Made by a program: the position numbers and the translations under genes
DNA from: an uncultured Ruminococcus sp.
GTDB taxonomy: Bacteria > Bacillota > Clostridia > Oscillospirales > CAG-272
Direction of reading: 5' to 3'
Assembly (NCBI GenBank): GCA_902762505.1
Contig: CACWOQ010000012.1
Span: 2,481 to 66,480 of the forward strand
Length of the DNA: 64,000 nucleotides
The notes under the pieces: model-generated
What the model was told of the DNA's origin: nothing
What the model saw: only the letters and a program-made list of their open reading frames with translations
The model's database searches: none
Shown here: piece by piece, positions 37,197 to 42,973 of the stretch
How the letters are laid out: every line of letters starts with the position of its first letter
Numbering within the stretch: position 1 is the stretch's first letter

Positions 37197-38237
37197 ATGA
37201 AAGGACAGATAACAGCGCTTATTAAGCCGGTATCCGGCGCCTGCGGGCTTGACTGCAAATACTGCTTTTACCGCGAGCTCGACCCGGGTGGAGGCGTTAT
37301 GGATGAAAAGACCGTAGACGCGCTTTTGTCGTTTCTGCCGCGCGGCGTCCGGGTCAATTTCGCGTTTCAGGGAGGGGAGCCGCTTTTGCGCGGCGCGGAC
37401 TTCTACCGTGATTTCGCCCTGCGCGTAAAGGCGGCAGGGATCGACGCCGCGTACAGCATACAGACGAACGGCGTCATGATCGACCGTGAGTATTGCCGTC
37501 TTTTCCGCGATCATGATTTTCTTGTTGGTCTGTCGCTCGACGGGACCCGCGCCTGCCACGACGCGGCAAGGGTCGACAAAAACGGCAAAGGAACGTATGA
37601 CCGGGTGATCGCTGCGGCGGAGCTTTTACAAAGCTGCGGCGTACCGTTCGACGTGCTCACGGTCGTCGGCTCGCACAACTGTCACGGCGCGGCGGAAATA
37701 TACGCGGATTATAAAAAACGCGGATTCCGTATCGTTCAGCTCATACCGTGCCTGCCGCCGCTTCATGGCATGGAGGGCGAGTCTTGCGACGTGTCGGATT
37801 TCTTCATTGAATTCTTTGATCTGTGGTACCGGGACGTCAGATCCGGCAAAGCCGTATTTGACGTGCGCGAGTTTTCAGAGCTTTCGGACGCGCTCCGCGG
37901 CGGGCGCCCGGGCTGCCGGTACGGCGGCGTCTGCACGCCGCAGTTCGTCGTCGAATCGAACGGAGATCTGTATCCGTGCGACTTCTACGTGAAGCCGGAA
38001 TACAGGACGGGATCGGTATTCGACACCCCGATCGACGAAACGCTTAAAAGCGAAGGGATGAGGCGCTTTATCCGCGACAGCCGTGAAAACGCGGAGATTT
38101 GCCGTCTCTGCCCGTATCTGTCCGTGTGCCGCGGTATGTGCCGGAGGATGAGGACGCTGTTCCGGCAGTTTCCCGTCTGTCCGTGGGCAAGACTTATATC
38201 ACACGTTACAAAACAAAGGGGCTGTCGCAAGTTATGA
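37197..38237 (+). CDS. Radical SAM/SPASM protein, anaerobic sulfatase-maturating enzyme family
   Basis: IKPVSGACGLDCKYCFY, FQGGEPLL, IQTNG, SLDG, VESNGDLYPCDFY, CxxCxxxxxCxGxC. Confidence 0.88.
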   Translation: MKGQITALIKPVSGACGLDCKYCFYRELDPGGGVMDEKTVDALLSFLPRGVRVNFAFQGGEPLLRGADFYRDFALRVKAAGIDAAYSIQTNGVMIDREYCRLFRDHDFLVGLSLDGTRACHDAARVDKNGKGTYDRVIAAAELLQSCGVPFDVLTVVGSHNCHGAAEIYADYKKRGFRIVQLIPCLPPLHGMEGESCDVSDFFIEFFDLWYRDVRSGKAVFDVREFSELSDALRGGRPGCRYGGVCTPQFVVESNGDLYPCDFYVKPEYRTGSVFDTPIDETLKSEGMRRFIRDSRENAEICRLCPYLSVCRGMCRRMRTLFRQFPVCPWARLISHVTKQRGCRKL

Positions 38238-38344: not shown

Positions 38345-41300
38345 TTATATTTTGAGCCCGTAGGAGCGGAGATCGGCGTCGGAAAGACCGAAATACGATT
38401 TCATGTGCTTTATGACGTTAACGTCGCGTTCGCGGAGCCATCCTTCGACAGACGCTATATGAGTCTCCCAGCGCGTCATCGACGAAGGCGCCGACATGAG
38501 TATGCCTGAGATATATCTGTCGTCGTTTTTGTTGCGGAAGCCCCAGCGCGCGATGTGATACTCCATCTCCTCGCTTATCTCGTTCGTAAGCTCGCGGAGA
38601 AGGGGAAGCAGCCTGTCGGGATTGAGCGTGTCGTTCAGAAGCTCGCAGAATCTTGAAATGAATTTCTTTTTGAACGTGCTGTTTTTGATAAGTCCCTGGA
38701 TTATGCCGTATATCTTTTTATCCTGCTTGAAAACGTAGTTGAATCTGCTTTCTTCGGATGACATGCTCCAGTCGAAATCGTACGGGATCCAGCGCCATTT
38801 CGCCGTGTCCGTCCGCTCGCGGTAGAATTTGATGTTTCCGGGGTCGGTGTTGGCGAAATATATCTGCGATATCCAGTAGTCGATATAGTTGTCAATATCC
38901 ATACGCGAGCAGACGTAGGCGTAATTGTCTTCGTTCGACATATTCTTTGTCGTTACGAATTTGTAAAGCTCGTTGTAATTCGTGCTCGTGCCGGACTGAA
39001 CGATCGACGAGCCCTTCATCCTGTCGAGGTTGTCGGGGTCGGCGCCGGTGTGGTTGGCGACGAATTCGTCTGAAATACGCTCGCGCAGATCGTAAATGCC
39101 GTAATAATCGCCGTTAAGATAAACGACGACCGGACGGTAGTTCATGACCTCGCAGTTTATCTTTCCGAGCAGAGCGCGGGCGATAAACGCGTCGCGTATG
39201 TGCGAGCGGTTCGCGTCCTGGCCCGAGCCGCGGAGAACGAGTGAAGAGAAGACGTTAATGTAATCCTCGCCGAAGAACGGATATACGACCTCTTTTATAC
39301 CGTATTTGTCCTTCAGATTGATCGAAACACTCTTCTGATCGTGTACCCGGCTGTACTGACCGAATACCTTGATGCCGGCGTTGAAGTTGAGCACCTGTCT
39401 GCCGCTCTCGTCGATATACGTGAAGCTGACGGGACGCTCCCAGCTTTGCCAGTAGTTCGCCTTCGGCGCGTCCTTGAAGAACAGATTCTCTTTCTCCGAA
39501 CCGCCAAGCGACGGATCGTCGTATTTCATCGACTCGGTATCAAAGTTCGGACCGTCGGCGAATATACCCGTCTTTTCGGAGAAAAGATCGTTCGGATCGG
39601 CGTTGAGGAATACGACCGGCATGTTGTGCACGCGGCCTACTATGAACGAGACCGAGACCTCGTCCGAGGGAAGGGCGTCGCTCTTGAAAGCGCGTGCGCG
39701 TATCGACGTCGTTTTATCGATCGTTATGGGAGAGCGGTAAAGCGTCGACGCCTGAGTTGGGGCGGTGCCGTCCGTAGTGTAGTAAACGATACATCCCGCG
39801 GGAGCTTTTATCGTCACGGCGGTCCCCGCTTCTACGTATCCGCCTTCAAGGCTGAAAGACGGCGCGCCTACGGATTTTGAATAAGTCACCGTACTGTTTT
39901 TCGCACCGGGAGTGACCTGCGTGAAATAATACAGGGTGTCGTCATCGTCTGATACGCGCCCCGCCGAGGTACGGTCGAAGAGAAGACCGGTGACGACGCT
40001 GTCGACCACGGTGCCGTTTTTATCGTACAGATAAATGTCGTTGCCGTAGCGGTTGAGACCGAGATCGACGTAGACGGAATCCGTCTTGCTGTCGTATTTC
40101 GTCTCGTCGCCGAAATATATGATCCTGTAGCCTCCGGCTTTGACCTTTACCGTCGGCAGCCATACCGCGCGGTCGAACGTCTTTTTTCCGATATAGAGCT
40201 CGGAGAGATCAAGATCGTTTTCCGTCGGGTTTTTTATCTCAACGAAATCGTACAGCTTGTAATAATCGTACAATTCCCCCGACGAATATGATTTTCCGTC
40301 AGGGGAGCTGTCAAGTGTGGCGTTGACTGCGACCACTTCGCTTATATATGCTGTTTTGTACGCCGGATGTCTTGCGCTGTTTATGTCTTCAAAGCCCGGC
40401 ACGTCGTTTTTTGCGTTTCTGGTGGCGCGGGGGAAGAACAGCCATTTATCGGGATTTTCGGGATCGCGTCCGCAGGTCATGTTCGATTCAAGATCGTAGA
40501 CCGTGCATCTGTCCATCTCGTCGCCTCTGCCGTTGTAAATGCCGAGGGACTCTTCCTTGCCGGAGAGGGTGAAGCTTGCGTGCAGCTCGCCGCCCGCGTA
40601 TTCTTTGTCCTTGCCGAGCATGAAGACGGTCAGATATCCGTCGGGCTGAAGCGTTACGTCCGGGAATTCCCATTTCGTCTTGTCCGCTTCGTCGTCCGAA
40701 AGGAACAGGCCTTTGAGCTTTACTACCTTTTCACCGTAGTTGTATATCTCGACCCAGGCGCCGTAATCGCCTTCCTCGTCGGTAAACGTGATGCATTTCT
40801 TCGTTGCGAATTCGTTTATGCGTACCGTGTTTACGGTCTTGTCGGTGAGGTTCAGGGGCTCGTCCGTCGACTGCTTTGGCTGATATTCCGCCGTGCCGTT
40901 CTTTTCACCGGGCGTCGGTTCGCTTAAAAGCACGGTGTGACCGTCCGGCGCGGGCGCCGCGGATATATCCGACGGGCAGTTGGCGGGGATCGTTATCCTG
41001 CCGATCTCGGTGCCGCCGGAGGTGAGCAGGGAAACTGTCTCGCCGGCTTTGCTGAGCTTGAACGGAAGGTGTATCGACGTCGTCTGTTCGTTATAAACGT
41101 TTCTGCCGGACGCCCATATGATTATGTATTCGCCGGGCTTCAGCTTAACGTCGGGCAGGATGCCCTTCGTGCGGTTGTCCGGATTGTCGGTTATCAGGTA
41201 GTTTTTGAGCGATATCTCGGATGAGCCGCCGTTGTAAAGCTCTATCCAGTCGCTGTATTCGCCGTAGTCGTCCGTCAACGTGGATTTGTTTGACGCCATG

Positions 41301-41506
41301 ACCTCGGACAGCATAAGTCCGTTTTCGTTCGGCTTGATGATGACCTCGGGCTGCGGCAGCGTTTCGATCGCTGTATCGGAACCGGGCGCCGACGACGACG
41401 GCGCCGTGCCGCTTACGTCAAACGAATCGTCGGGAGTGCTGAGATCGCACGCGGCGAGGCTTAAAAGCGTAATGACCGCGAGCGCAACCGATATAATTCT
41501 TTTCAT
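38345..41506 (-). CDS. CotH-family kinase lipoprotein with lamin-tail domains and Fn3-associated repeat
   Basis: LAAC lipobox; LTD repeats (SEVMASN..DWIELYN, INEF..WVEIYN, ISEV..DFVEI); YYTTDGTAPT; YYGIYDLRE, NTDPGN, WIPYDFD. Confidence 0.88.
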   Translation of the reverse strand: MKRIISVALAVITLLSLAACDLSTPDDSFDVSGTAPSSSAPGSDTAIETLPQPEVIIKPNENGLMLSEVMASNKSTLTDDYGEYSDWIELYNGGSSEISLKNYLITDNPDNRTKGILPDVKLKPGEYIIIWASGRNVYNEQTTSIHLPFKLSKAGETVSLLTSGGTEIGRITIPANCPSDISAAPAPDGHTVLLSEPTPGEKNGTAEYQPKQSTDEPLNLTDKTVNTVRINEFATKKCITFTDEEGDYGAWVEIYNYGEKVVKLKGLFLSDDEADKTKWEFPDVTLQPDGYLTVFMLGKDKEYAGGELHASFTLSGKEESLGIYNGRGDEMDRCTVYDLESNMTCGRDPENPDKWLFFPRATRNAKNDVPGFEDINSARHPAYKTAYISEVVAVNATLDSSPDGKSYSSGELYDYYKLYDFVEIKNPTENDLDLSELYIGKKTFDRAVWLPTVKVKAGGYRIIYFGDETKYDSKTDSVYVDLGLNRYGNDIYLYDKNGTVVDSVVTGLLFDRTSAGRVSDDDDTLYYFTQVTPGAKNSTVTYSKSVGAPSFSLEGGYVEAGTAVTIKAPAGCIVYYTTDGTAPTQASTLYRSPITIDKTTSIRARAFKSDALPSDEVSVSFIVGRVHNMPVVFLNADPNDLFSEKTGIFADGPNFDTESMKYDDPSLGGSEKENLFFKDAPKANYWQSWERPVSFTYIDESGRQVLNFNAGIKVFGQYSRVHDQKSVSINLKDKYGIKEVVYPFFGEDYINVFSSLVLRGSGQDANRSHIRDAFIARALLGKINCEVMNYRPVVVYLNGDYYGIYDLRERISDEFVANHTGADPDNLDRMKGSSIVQSGTSTNYNELYKFVTTKNMSNEDNYAYVCSRMDIDNYIDYWISQIYFANTDPGNIKFYRERTDTAKWRWIPYDFDWSMSSEESRFNYVFKQDKKIYGIIQGLIKNSTFKKKFISRFCELLNDTLNPDRLLPLLRELTNEISEEMEYHIARWGFRNKNDDRYISGILMSAPSSMTRWETHIASVEGWLRERDVNVIKHMKSYFGLSDADLRSYGLKI

Positions 41507-41519
41507 TTTACTCCTCTTA

Positions 41520-42203
41520 TCAAATGTATTCGCCGGTGCTCTTTACGAGCGTCACGGAGGATACGCCGGGGTATGCGTTGAGCTTGTTCAGGAATTTTGT
41601 GGAACCGGAGATAAGCGTGACCTCCATCGAAAGCTCGACGGTGTTTTCAACGAGAGCCTTTGATTTCAGACGGCTTTTCTTCGTGGATTTTTCGATATAG
41701 CGGACGACGGGTTCCTCGTCGTCGGGGTTTACGTTTATCATGAGTATATAGGAATCCGCGGCGGAGGGCAGGCGGGAGGCGACGATGAGTATCACGCCGA
41801 CGACAACGGCGCCGACAGCCGCGAGACCGAGCAGGTTTGCGCCGCACATGATGCCCGCGCAGATGGAGTAGTACAGGAATACTATGTCAAGCGGATCCTT
41901 TATCGCCGTTCTGAAACGGATGATCGAAAGCGCGCCGACCATACCGAGCGAAAGAACGATGTTCGACGTTATCGTCATGAGGATCAGTGTCGTGATGACG
42001 TCCATCGCAAGAAGCGAAACGGCGAACGTGCGGGAGAAGAGCACGCCGCGGTAGCTGATGCGGTAAACGACGATTATGAGAAGTCCGATGAGTATGGATA
42101 CCGCCATGGTGAGCAGAAATCTGCCCATGCCGAGATCCTGGTTGAAGTTTTCGACGAAGCCTTTTTTGAAAACGTCTGAAAATGTGGTTAAAGAGTATAT
42201 CAT
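41520..42203 (-). CDS. DUF4956 membrane protein
   Basis: SLGMVGALSIIRFRTAIKDP signature; TMs plus C-terminal ACT-like domain. Confidence 0.92.
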   Translation of the reverse strand: MIYSLTTFSDVFKKGFVENFNQDLGMGRFLLTMAVSILIGLLIIVVYRISYRGVLFSRTFAVSLLAMDVITTLILMTITSNIVLSLGMVGALSIIRFRTAIKDPLDIVFLYYSICAGIMCGANLLGLAAVGAVVVGVILIVASRLPSAADSYILMINVNPDDEEPVVRYIEKSTKKSRLKSKALVENTVELSMEVTLISGSTKFLNKLNAYPGVSSVTLVKSTGEYI

Positions 42204-42218
42204 GACGGTGGTCCTTTC

Positions 42219-42923
42219 TTAACTAAACGTTCTTCCGAACACGTATTTTGAACATGAGCTCTGCATCGTGGATTCATCCGGAAGCAGATTTCTTATATGA
42301 TCGGGCAGGAAATGGTCGTATTTGACCTCCAGCACGACCCAGCACGGCGGTACGGTATAAACAAGAGTTCCGTAATCGAGAAACATATCGACGCCGGCGC
42401 CGGAGCCCTTGATATTTGAATCGAGCGTGATCCTCACGTTCGACGCGTCGCATACGAACGCACGGCGCGTGTATTCGACTATCGTCTTTGGGCGGTATCC
42501 CTCGACGTTTATCATATGGTAAAACTCACGGGCAAGATCGGAGTCAAGCGAGAGAAGGCTTTCGCCGCGGCGGTACATTATATCGTCGTAGATCTGACGG
42601 TCTATCCTGACGGATTCCTTTTTGCCGAGCGGTCCGCGCTTGCTTTTACGCTCCAGGCTGATGAAAGAATCGCTGTGGTTGTACGATCTGATACGGTATT
42701 TTTTACGCTTCAGAAGCCCGGCGGCTGTGCCGGCAAGCGATCTTTCGTCCGGCGTGTCAAAATACACGCTGCTTATAAGATATTTGCCGCGGTCTACCGC
42801 GTATTTGTCGAATTTCATCACCTGACACAGACGCGAGGTAAGCTCGGTCGCCTGTACCGGCGTTATGAAGTATTTCAGCTCGTGCCTGTAATCCTGCGAG
42901 GAATCCTGCATCAGGCGGTCCAA
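42219..42923 (-). CDS. VTC-domain (CYTH/TTM fold) polyphosphate polymerase
   Basis: RHELKY, ISSVYFDT, KKYRIRSY, LERK, YTRRAF, RITLD, VLEVKY, SKY; TTG start with GGGGGTG RBS (or ATG 42911). Confidence 0.92.
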   Translation of the reverse strand: MDRLMQDSSQDYRHELKYFITPVQATELTSRLCQVMKFDKYAVDRGKYLISSVYFDTPDERSLAGTAAGLLKRKKYRIRSYNHSDSFISLERKSKRGPLGKKESVRIDRQIYDDIMYRRGESLLSLDSDLAREFYHMINVEGYRPKTIVEYTRRAFVCDASNVRITLDSNIKGSGAGVDMFLDYGTLVYTVPPCWVVLEVKYDHFLPDHIRNLLPDESTMQSSCSKYVFGRTFS

Positions 42924-42944
42924 GACACCACCCCCTTTTAATTT

Positions 42945-42973
42945 AATATATCACATTGTTTAAAGTATATCAA
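42945..42973 (-). promoter_or_regulatory. sigmaA promoter of the VTC-DUF4956-CotH operon
   Basis: TTGATA-17nt-TATATT with TG extension. Confidence 0.65.

Follow-up and report, generated by a model that had tools for sequence, protein, structure and literature searches.

A Clostridia gene trio encoding a Vtc4-like tunnel enzyme, a DUF4956 membrane protein and a CotH-family lipoprotein, a candidate polyphosphate module of the cell envelope

Kinase-fold enzymes located outside bacteria have, to our knowledge, no obvious phosphate donor, and we know of no defined route by which prokaryotes export polyphosphate (polyP). Both questions are raised by three adjacent genes in a 64,000 nt stretch of DNA from an uncultured rumen bacterium, Ruminococcus sp. 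(contig CACWOQ010000012.1), referred to here as the window. The original prediction was that a VTC-domain enzyme and a DUF4956 membrane protein export polyP, and that the polymer serves as phosphate donor or substrate for a surface kinase of the CotH family. The observation underlying this prediction was confirmed, and its interpretation is partly supported. The features concerned are as follows.

42945..42973, minus strand: promoter-like site TTGATA-17-TATATT with an upstream TG, 22 nt 5' of the VTC start (10/12 matches, consensus scan only)
42219..42923, minus strand: VTC-domain (triphosphate tunnel) protein, 234 aa, TTG start, Pfam VTC
41520..42203, minus strand: DUF4956 membrane protein, 227 aa, Pfam DUF4956
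38345..41506, minus strand: CotH-kinase lipoprotein, 1053 aa, lipobox, Pfam LTD and CotH

All three open reading frames and their domains were found as first described, and the listing of open reading frames gives the gaps between them as only 13 nt (41507-41519) and 15 nt (42204-42218). Judged from sequence, the genes appear to form a tight chromosomal operon whose candidate products are a yeast-type polyP-making enzyme, a small membrane protein and a lipid-anchored surface kinase. A purine-rich ribosome-binding site lies 5' of the TTG start of the VTC gene, and an in-frame ATG follows four codons after it. A sigmaA-like promoter had also been proposed; the consensus site is indeed present, but it counts as a match to the consensus, not as evidence for a SigA promoter, because the region contains 7 such sites compared with 4.1 +/- 1.9 in shuffled sequences. 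Since no terminator-like site was found between the upstream PBP5-like gene and the promoter-like site, there may also be read-through from that gene. The other neighbours in the window are RibF, RsmG, an SMC-like ATPase, a radical-SAM gene and Trk genes. Contigs 95-99% identical to the locus in four ruminant-gut RNA libraries (from three studies) extend across all three genes and span both junctions, which is a measure of presence in RNA libraries and not proof of a single transcript.

We found that the 234-aa protein matches Pfam VTC (PF09359) at 9.3e-38 over residues 13-230 (130.5 bits against a cut-off of 23; model positions 2-230 of 235). The five basic tunnel motifs previously picked out are all present in the translation (RHELK at 13-17, KYRIR at 75-79, RITLD at 164-168, EVK at 199-201 and SKY at 225-227), and their charged residues are invariant in an alignment with 59 relatives, which has 20 invariant columns. 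A profile finds yeast Vtc4 (3g3q) at 2.6e-22, and the AF2 model (pLDDT 91.9) has Vtc4 as its top Foldseek match (3g3r/3g3q, E 1e-13 to 3e-13, TM 0.69-0.74), with YgiF at 4e-8 and other TTM enzymes at 4e-8 or weaker; sequence profile and fold are therefore both nearest to the Vtc4 polymerase. Residues K17, R77, R79, K93, Y151 and R153 align with Vtc4 K200, R264, R266, K281, Y359 and R361, mutation of which lowers polyP according to the available part of a study of the yeast complex (bioRxiv 10.1101/2023.01.27.525886). Across the 59 relatives each of these positions is either invariant or at least 90% conserved. Of the nine catalytic residues of Vtc4, mapping succeeded for these six, and none of them is lost here. 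Equivalents of Vtc4 E426, S457 and K458 could not be aligned, as the profile alignment ends at position 173 and a C-terminal profile alone missed Vtc4. E199, K201, S225 and K226 are nevertheless invariant among the relatives, and collinearity with the Pfam model suggests that the invariant S-K pair in the last strand is equivalent to Vtc4 S457-K458, of which K458 is absent from the inactive Vtc2 and Vtc3 in the part of the same study that was available (bioRxiv 10.1101/2023.01.27.525886).

The window thus shares with the yeast VTC complex (Vtc4/Vtc3/Vtc1; PDB 3g3q, 7ytj, 8i6v) the Pfam catalytic tunnel family, the nearest fold and six aligned triphosphate-binding residues, and both systems pair the enzyme with a membrane component. 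However, Pfam finds neither an SPX domain nor a fused Vtc1-type (DUF202) three-helix membrane domain in the window's enzyme, which is a VTC domain alone; its partner is a separate and unrelated MgtC-like protein with an ACT-like tail, and the proposed destination of the polymer is the cell surface rather than the vacuole. As weak evidence on fused forms, a single-protein search found no VTC relative longer than 410 aa and a profile search found one of 692 aa, with VTC as its sole domain match. The window's enzyme has no N-terminal hydrophobic segment, and we regard it as a candidate cytoplasmic polyphosphate polymerase. A further difference is that the bacterial VTC proteins carry an invariant glutamate, E15, in the first strand (R-x-E-x-K) where yeast Vtc4 has threonine. 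Glutamate in such a position is typical of hydrolytic TTM enzymes.

The 227-aa protein matches DUF4956 (PF16316) at 1.6e-12 over residues 43-176 (47.9 bits against a cut-off of 30.6), and all 55 of its aligned relatives match the same Pfam family. The protein has a conserved SxxRFR...G..G motif, and G90, R98 and G117 are invariant. Its plan is an N-terminal amphipathic helix, five membrane helices and a C-terminal ACT-like domain; the ACT-like tail had been predicted and is backed by the AF2 model (pLDDT 87.4), in which five helices are followed by a beta-alpha-beta-beta-alpha-beta unit at 151-221, as well as by fold matches. Among solved structures the tail is closest to MgtC C-terminal domains (2lqj and 7qa5, Z 10.3), with a score tied with those of many ACT and ferredoxin-like folds. 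MgtC proteins (PF02308) likewise have membrane helices followed by an ACT-like domain, and Pfam MgtC is detected at E<=1 in 35/55 DUF4956 family members (best 2.3e-4). The window's protein itself nevertheless falls below the cut-offs of both Pfam MgtC (13.3 bits against 31.4, E 0.11) and NCBIfam MgtC/SapB (19.7 bits against 214), and the likeness to the MgtC family is remote and does not amount to membership.

The idea that DUF4956 takes the place of a Vtc1-type channel fared less well. At E<=1 the only Pfam matches of the protein are DUF4956, MgtC and DUF4383, with none to DUF202, so that no likeness to a Vtc1-type channel was detectable, and in the available text of PMC12345266 the role discussed for the MgtC family is regulation of ATP synthase and PhoR, not that of a pore. 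Such a replacement is, on these grounds, unproven.

The third protein has a lipobox (L-A-A-C) at residues 17-20, three stretches of LTD (lamin-tail domain; PF00932, 2.8e-36), a CHB_HEX_C_1/Fn3_assoc module at 554-615 and a CotH domain (PF08757, 5.4e-46) at 712-1028, which scores 158 bits against a cut-off of 23.8; every element originally listed for it was recovered. A profile of 49 CotH partner domains matches B. cereus CotH (5jd9) at 1.6e-47 over 339 positions. D888 (N-T-D) and D910 (Y-D-F-D), 22 residues apart, align with N-F-D and W-D-Y-D of 5jd9, which has its two aspartates at a distance of 23, like D228 and D251 of B. subtilis, and D888 and D910 are kept in 48/49 and 49/49 partner domains respectively. 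The protein is predicted to be extracytoplasmic, as a surface kinase should be, and it retains both catalytic aspartates. The Bacillus spore-coat enzyme (5jd9/5jda) belongs to the same kinase family, with its D228 and D251 equivalents kept here, but it works with ATP in the interior of the mother cell, and neither VTC nor DUF4956 is encoded next to it, whereas a lipid anchor on the outer side of the membrane is predicted for the window's protein; because of the lipobox and exported-type domains, the place of action of the latter would be a different one.

To see how far the trio recurs we surveyed the neighbourhoods of 115 Clostridia VTC loci and the phyletic distribution of the families in 300 genomes of the class. 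DUF4956 lies directly downstream of VTC on the same strand in 107/115 loci, and the subfamilies of the two proteins agree in 104/107 pairs. The third gene encodes CotH at 53 loci, the beta-helix protein Cthe_2159 at 37 and neither at 25, and both never occur together. An N-terminal hydrophobic segment is present in 53/55 CotH and 37/39 Cthe_2159 partners compared with 2/114 VTC proteins. The VTC tree has two clades, each with 100/100 support, one with 49 CotH, 4 Cthe_2159 and 4 loci with neither, and the other with 33 Cthe_2159, 21 with neither and 4 CotH; at least 11 partner swaps are required on this tree. VTC is found in 145/300 genomes, and 136 of these 145 (94%) hold CotH, Cthe_2159 or both, as against 23/155 VTC-negative genomes. 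Conversely, VTC is present in 101/113 genomes with CotH and 88/101 with Cthe_2159; the 12/113 CotH genomes in which VTC was not detected are joined by B. subtilis. The trio is kept in 8/9 of the closest relatives (rumen MAGs, VTC 70-89% identical), the ninth being cut by a contig end, and homologous trios are also found in an archaeon and in Bacteroidaceae. The trio is thus widespread, as had been believed, and the three domains co-occur far above chance.

The window's genome has one module of each kind. In the second, deep paralogues of VTC and DUF4956 are preceded by a two-component system and have a Cthe_2159 beta-helix lipoprotein as partner. Proteins of the Cthe_2159 family are reported to bind acidic polymers and are not kinases. 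Fuelling a kinase cannot therefore be the whole story, and the alternation of CotH with a non-kinase beta-helix protein narrows the hypotheses: because the paralogous module pairs with Cthe_2159, the common currency of the two would be an exported polyanion and not kinase signalling as such.

The reading that we favour, tentatively, is that polyP synthesis takes place at the membrane and that the polymer then moves outward, where the surface partner uses it; we consider this quite possible. The cytoplasmic Vtc4-like tunnel enzyme would, by homology, polymerise phosphate from ATP into polyP. The MgtC-like DUF4956 protein, to judge from gene linkage, would hold the enzyme at the membrane and pass the polymer or its effect outward. 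If the C-terminal domain of this protein lies inside, its RFR motif would be found where the membrane meets the cytoplasm. The lipid-anchored CotH-family phosphotransferase, standing off the membrane on its three lamin-tail domains, may then use or handle the exported polymer, which could serve as phosphate donor or substrate in an ATP-free compartment. The more specific proposal, that VTC and DUF4956 are a bacterial and archaeal polyP synthase-translocase supplying an outer-face polyanion to interchangeable exported partners (CotH, with an ATP-independent donor or substrate, or Cthe_2159, which would bind or process it), is somewhat doubtful. In favour of export we counted the Vtc4 likeness, gene linkage, exported third gene, phyletic coupling, conservation, RNA libraries and the yeast precedent, in which polymerisation and membrane transit are coupled according to the part of the study available (bioRxiv 10.1101/2023.01.27.525886); against it we counted the MgtC-like nature of DUF4956, E15, the three Vtc4 residues that did not align, the deletion phenotypes in S. 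intermedius described below, the CotH genomes in which VTC was not detected and the Bacillus enzyme. Bacillus CotH has been assayed with ATP.

The most serious rival, although rather unlikely, is that the target of the trio is a secreted polysaccharide or wall polymer, which it modifies or regulates, with CotH phosphorylating a glycan or matrix protein and VTC and the MgtC-like protein forming a regulatory pair (phosphate or energy sensing) instead of an export route. It draws on printed context: in the available portions of the sources, cotH, 'polyphosphate polymerase' and DUF4956 are accessory genes of Gram-positive Pel loci (Whitfield et al. 2020, bioRxiv 10.1101/768473), and the same three families are adjacent at the Pel locus of S. 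intermedius (SIR_1592-1594; PMC12345266, 2025), where deletion of the DUF4956 and CotH homologues altered Pel level and aggregation, the DUF4956 mutant making more Pel (PMC12345266). No such change is reported for the VTC homologue in that portion of the paper (PMC12345266), and a simple linear pathway therefore fits badly. Four of our loci carry PelF and PelG, and seven more, plus one cut by a contig end, have the NELoc-2-type combination of a 723-aa protein, a HEAT-repeat protein and a GT2 synthase, which is frequently accompanied by a GGDEF gene. Seven of them match in order and size the C. perfringens NELoc-2 locus, given in the available part of Lepp et al. (2010, PMC2879425) as VTC, a 222-226-aa membrane protein ('tubulin/FtsZ'), CotH, a 685-aa protein, a HEAT-repeat protein and a GT2 'chitin synthase'; we infer from size and position that the 'tubulin/FtsZ' gene is DUF4956. 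The glycan-associated CHB_HEX_C_1/Fn3_assoc modules of the CotH partners, and the MgtC-like character of DUF4956, also point this way.

Against this, about 42 of the 53 CotH trios, the window's included, lie outside any recognisable exopolysaccharide locus (no synthase genes within 8 kb), whereas according to the available S. intermedius text no such arrangement was found away from the Pel locus (PMC12345266). The window contains neither a contiguous pelDEADAFG set nor the downstream synthase genes of NELoc-2, and PelG gave no match in its genome (89.7% complete). The Pel-locus kinase is CotH plus FN3, in contrast to the window's 1053-aa lipoprotein with three lamin-tail domains, and a polymerase-type TTM enzyme as the invariant partner is left unexplained. 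Polymer modification and polyP export are partly compatible, since the phosphate acceptor could be a glycan.

It is unlikely, but conceivable, that VTC with DUF4956 as anchor makes polyP for intracellular storage, the exported neighbour being co-regulated with it (for example under phosphate or envelope stress) without receiving the polymer. VTC could simply be a housekeeping synthase because the window's genome, 89.7% complete, has no PPK1 or PPK2 match; it has one Ppx/GppA match, and two-component systems adjoin 54/115 modules. However, VTC coexists with PPK1 and/or PPK2 in B. thetaiotaomicron, M. acetivorans and C. glutamicum, the window's genome has two such modules, and co-regulation alone would hardly account for a linkage so close to obligate, and for phyletic coupling, with two unrelated exported families.

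It is improbable that the VTC protein is instead a hydrolase or cyclase with a tunnel fold, its substrate being triphosphate, a nucleotide or some other compound, and that the module signals through the product: E15 would suit such an enzyme, the fold is common to TTM enzymes of other activities and the C-terminal catalytic residues are unmapped, but profile and fold are nearest Vtc4 by several orders of magnitude, the six triphosphate-binding residues are kept, and an invariant S-K pair stands in the last strand, the presumed counterpart of Vtc4 S457-K458. Finally, membership of the CotH family and of the class Clostridia would suit a spore-coat kinase operon as in Bacillus, but this is very improbable, as the original prediction had argued, given a signal peptide with a lipobox, extracellular-type domains that span 700 residues, the ability of Bacillus CotH to work without VTC or DUF4956, and homologous trios in an archaeon, Bacteroidaceae and streptococci, which do not sporulate according to the available part of PMC12345266.

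It had been said that no function was established for the trio, which is fair, although the gene set was already in print at Pel loci and NELoc-2; what is new here is the alternation of CotH and Cthe_2159, the location of most trios outside exopolysaccharide loci and the phyletic coupling. Should VTC and DUF4956 prove to be a synthase-translocase, this would be the first defined polyP export route in prokaryotes and would answer how kinase-fold enzymes can work extracellularly. About half of the sampled genomes of the class carry a Vtc4-like enzyme, almost always with the same membrane protein next to it, and if the module moves polyP outward it would represent a common, overlooked envelope biochemistry of gut and rumen anaerobes, linked to biofilm polysaccharides. 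The window's genome, with its CotH and Cthe_2159 modules, offers two natural systems for comparison.

The three minus-strand genes at the centre of the original prediction were described correctly there: ORF calls bore out their positions, Pfam found the named domains, and all the proposed VTC motifs were found in the VTC translation. The features of the locus are:

42219..42923, minus strand: VTC ORF, 234 aa, TTG start; Pfam VTC, 9.3e-38
41520..42203, minus strand: DUF4956 ORF, 227 aa; Pfam DUF4956, 1.6e-12
38345..41506, minus strand: CotH lipoprotein ORF, 1053 aa; Pfam CotH, 5.4e-46, C-terminal
42973..42945, minus strand: promoter-like site, TTGATA-17-TATATT with TG
37197..38237, plus strand: radical SAM/SPASM gene, anaerobic-sulfatase-maturase-like, convergent with the CotH gene

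The intergenic gaps are 15 nt (VTC/DUF4956) and 13 nt (DUF4956/CotH), and the upstream promoter-like site is a consensus match only; the region has 7 of them, where shuffled sequence gives 4.1 +/- 1.9. The 1053-aa protein starts with MKRIISVALAVITLLSLAAC, which includes a lipobox, and continues through three LTD stretches and a CHB_HEX_C_1/Fn3_assoc module to the CotH domain. A spore-coat role for the trio was rejected on account of this lipobox signal peptide and the 700 residues of extracellular-type domains. The neighbours are core-chromosome genes (UvrA, EF-G, EF-Tu, Trk, MscS, RibF, RsmG, MltG, FtsK, UppP), not those of an island. The radical SAM gene was dropped as a fourth part: it converges on the CotH gene, falls short of the NCBIfam cut-off (267 bits against 349) and has a same-size counterpart beside the trio in only one of nine close relatives.

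We surveyed 301 genomes from the class of the genome that contains the window (G000); one was unscored, and VTC was present in 145 of the other 300. From 148 listed places outside G000, we took the 113 with a start 5000 bases or more into the contig, dropping the other 35 for that alone, and added the two G000 loci to give 115. The HMMs used to label the families were derived iteratively from proteins of the window. Pfam was additionally run on 25 cluster representatives and, at loci lacking either a labelled third gene or an adjacent DUF4956, on 36 of 69 unlabelled neighbours; no hidden CotH, Cthe_2159 or DUF4956 was found among those 36.

It can be seen that the linkage of VTC to DUF4956 is near-obligate, with DUF4956 directly after VTC on the same strand at 107 of the 115 loci and the VTC and DUF4956 subfamilies in agreement in 104 of 107 pairs. 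Between two genes upstream and four downstream, the third gene was CotH at 53 loci, Cthe_2159 at 37 and neither at 25, and never both. Cthe_2159 is described (Close 2014, as cited in a preprint) as a beta-helix binding cellulose and polygalacturonic acid. The third partner, of two alternating kinds, is of an exported type; by a simple heuristic an N-terminal hydrophobic segment is present in 53/55 CotH and 37/39 Cthe_2159 proteins, against 2/114 VTC proteins. The recurrence of the VTC-DUF4956-CotH trio is as the original prediction had expected. Genes for a response regulator and a histidine kinase are paired close by at 23/53 CotH loci, 25/37 Cthe_2159 loci and 6/25 of the loci with neither. 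At two loci (L061 and L069) the gene after VTC is not DUF4956; it encodes a protein of about 1030 aa, in which Pfam finds S-layer homology domains only, and a xanthine/uracil permease gene comes next.

The families are also coupled phyletically. Among the same 300 genomes VTC was found in 101 of the 113 that are CotH-positive and in 88 of the 101 that are Cthe_2159-positive, and one or other partner was present in 136 of 145 VTC-positive as against 23 of 155 VTC-negative genomes; these counts are descriptive, as related genomes are not independent. Of 14 control genomes, VTC and DUF4956 both match only B. thetaiotaomicron, C. glutamicum and M. acetivorans, and CotH matches the same three and B. 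subtilis.

G000 itself carries a second module (C11:33990-40900, equivalent to L012:6991-13907), in which two response-regulator/histidine-kinase-like gene pairs are followed by VTC (244 aa), DUF4956 (223 aa) and a Cthe_2159 protein (565 aa) whose N-terminal hydrophobic segment ends in a cysteine, as in a lipoprotein. The two modules are deeply diverged, with 25% identity between the VTC and 19% between the DUF4956 proteins. The VTC tree has two clades, each with support of 100/100: that of the window's gene has CotH as partner 49 times, Cthe_2159 four times and neither four times, and that of the C11 paralogue has Cthe_2159 33 times, neither 21 times and CotH four times. Well-supported branches force at least 11 partner changes.

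G000 further encodes six CotH proteins (C4:49741-52143, C18:7219-8478, C1:86132-88783, C53:10409-14215, C7:44600-46465 and C9:28765-30564) and two Cthe_2159 proteins (C4:19955-22042 and C4:26643-28532) away from VTC. Several contain CHB_HEX_C_1/Fn3_assoc and LTD modules, with RCC1-like repeats added in one of 1268 aa. They would be further users of a shared substrate, should the module provide one.

A search with the window's single VTC protein, which reaches mostly the CotH-type clade, gave 47 related loci, and the VTC ORF was called by script in 39. CotH adjoins in 36 of these; of the other three, one is truncated inside the LTD region, one lacks both partners, and one, from a Bacteroidaceae, has DUF2490 after the VTC-DUF4956 pair along with Cthe_2159. 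The VTC relatives with 70-89% identity are from Clostridia assembled from rumen metagenomes. Among the nine closest loci, eight have the LTD-CotH form at 1044-1057 aa and the ninth ends at the contig end, and upstream genes of matching sizes are found in seven. The methanogenic archaeon Methanimicrococcus stummii (L143) carries two sets side by side, DUF4956-CotH-VTC and VTC-DUF4956-CotH. Four ruminant-gut RNA libraries, from three studies, yielded contigs 95-99% identical that span all three genes and both junctions; these contigs record presence in an RNA library rather than a transcript, and are silent on strand, transcript ends and expression level.

The VTC protein is homologous to yeast Vtc4, which a profile of 59 relatives (alignment A1) matched at 2.6e-22. 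The AF2 model (pLDDT 91.9) has the Vtc4 tunnel domain as its nearest fold (E 1e-13, TM up to 0.74) and is much further from the other tunnel enzymes, E. coli YgiF (4e-8) among them. According to the VTC cryo-EM preprint (bioRxiv 10.1101/2023.01.27.525886), polyP in yeast needs Vtc4 K200, R264, R266, K281, R361, K458, S457, Y359 and E426, and the inactive Vtc2 and Vtc3 are without K458. In the profile alignment K17, R77, R79, K93, Y151 and R153 align with Vtc4 K200, R264, R266, K281, Y359 and R361, and all six are invariant or nearly so in A1. E199, K201, S225 and K226 are likewise invariant and lie beyond the end of the Vtc4 profile alignment, where E426, S457 and K458 are expected; we infer that they are equivalent. 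A C-terminal profile (A4) did not recover Vtc4 among solved structures, its matches arising only by chance (E 0.18), and a single-sequence search of solved structures gave no match. Unlike Vtc4, which has a threonine there, the bacterial proteins keep an invariant glutamate, E15. The searches for fusions are weak evidence: that with the single protein, the sole coverage of fusions of about 450 aa, found no fused form above 410 aa, and a profile search gave one 692-aa metagenomic protein, P0006, with VTC only, at the C-terminus (residues 467-683), and no Pfam match in its N-terminal 460 residues.

For DUF4956, the AF2 model (pLDDT 87.4) opens with an amphipathic helix, continues through five membrane helices and closes with a beta-alpha-beta-beta-alpha-beta domain. 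This C-terminal domain is nearest to those of MgtC proteins (Foldseek, VIA-align), although the match of the tail to 2lqj (Z 10.3) is tied with many ACT-like folds; fold matches are confined to it, with the membrane part barely covered. Pfam MgtC is touched at E<=1 by 35/55 family members, none above cut-off. Searches of solved structures gave one weak ACT match with the profile (E 0.26) and only designed or low-complexity helices with the single sequence. DUF4956 had been proposed to replace a missing transmembrane channel; we found no link to the three-helix Vtc1 channel, and the comparison is one of analogy, not homology. If the tail is on the inner side, a conserved SxxRFR motif would be placed at the cytoplasmic interface, as would suit a candidate anion-receiving site. 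Complex prediction of DUF4956 with VTC (A2 with A1) scored 0.00 (mark 0.32), evidence neither way.

The CotH active site is also conserved. A profile of 49 partner domains matched B. cereus CotH at 1.6e-47, and D888 and D910 of the window protein correspond to D228 and D251, the known catalytic aspartates of B. subtilis CotH; they are kept in 48/49 and 49/49 partner domains. The single sequence matched no solved structure.

A tentative model, which we consider somewhat more apt to be wrong than right, is that VTC would make polyP, DUF4956 would pass the polymer across the membrane, and CotH or Cthe_2159 would use it outside. The fuelling of a surface kinase, as first proposed, is plausible and unproven, and in one respect too narrow, as some partners are no kinases (Cthe_2159 at 37/115 loci). 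Against export and use of polyP stand the MgtC-like DUF4956, E15, the use of ATP in assays of Bacillus CotH, and 12 CotH genomes without VTC. In S. intermedius, the available part of the report (PMC12345266) describes phenotypes for deletion of the other two genes and none for VTC, which also counts against it. Neither PPK1 nor PPK2 was matched in G000 (assembly 89.7% complete), a further point against export; VTC could therefore have a storage role there. On these searches G000 may have no candidates for a polyphosphate synthase besides its two VTC genes; one Ppx/GppA match was found in it (C28:2588-3325). The gene set is real and recognised in print; we found no biochemical function for the bacterial VTC-DUF4956-CotH module in the literature searched, where supplementary figures may list more taxa.

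Some CotH trios stand beside exopolysaccharide genes. PelF and PelG were found in four surveyed loci, and PelG had no match in G000 at its 89.7% completeness. In seven others (L053, L058, L080, L086, L088, L096 and L101), and in L085 at a contig end, the trio of these Clostridia runs into a conserved set for a GT2 synthase, a HEAT-repeat protein and a protein of 723 aa that Pfam does not match; a GGDEF gene often precedes it. With PelF/PelG in four and this set in seven, synthase genes could not be recognised within 8 kb of about 42 of the 53 CotH trios, among them the window's. The set matches C. perfringens NELoc-2 by gene order and size (PMC2879425). Alongside Pel, it resembles another kind of synthase-dependent exopolysaccharide locus into which the trio is recruited. 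According to the 2025 S. intermedius paper (PMC12345266), the arrangement does not turn up away from the Pel locus, and our Clostridia sample contradicts this.
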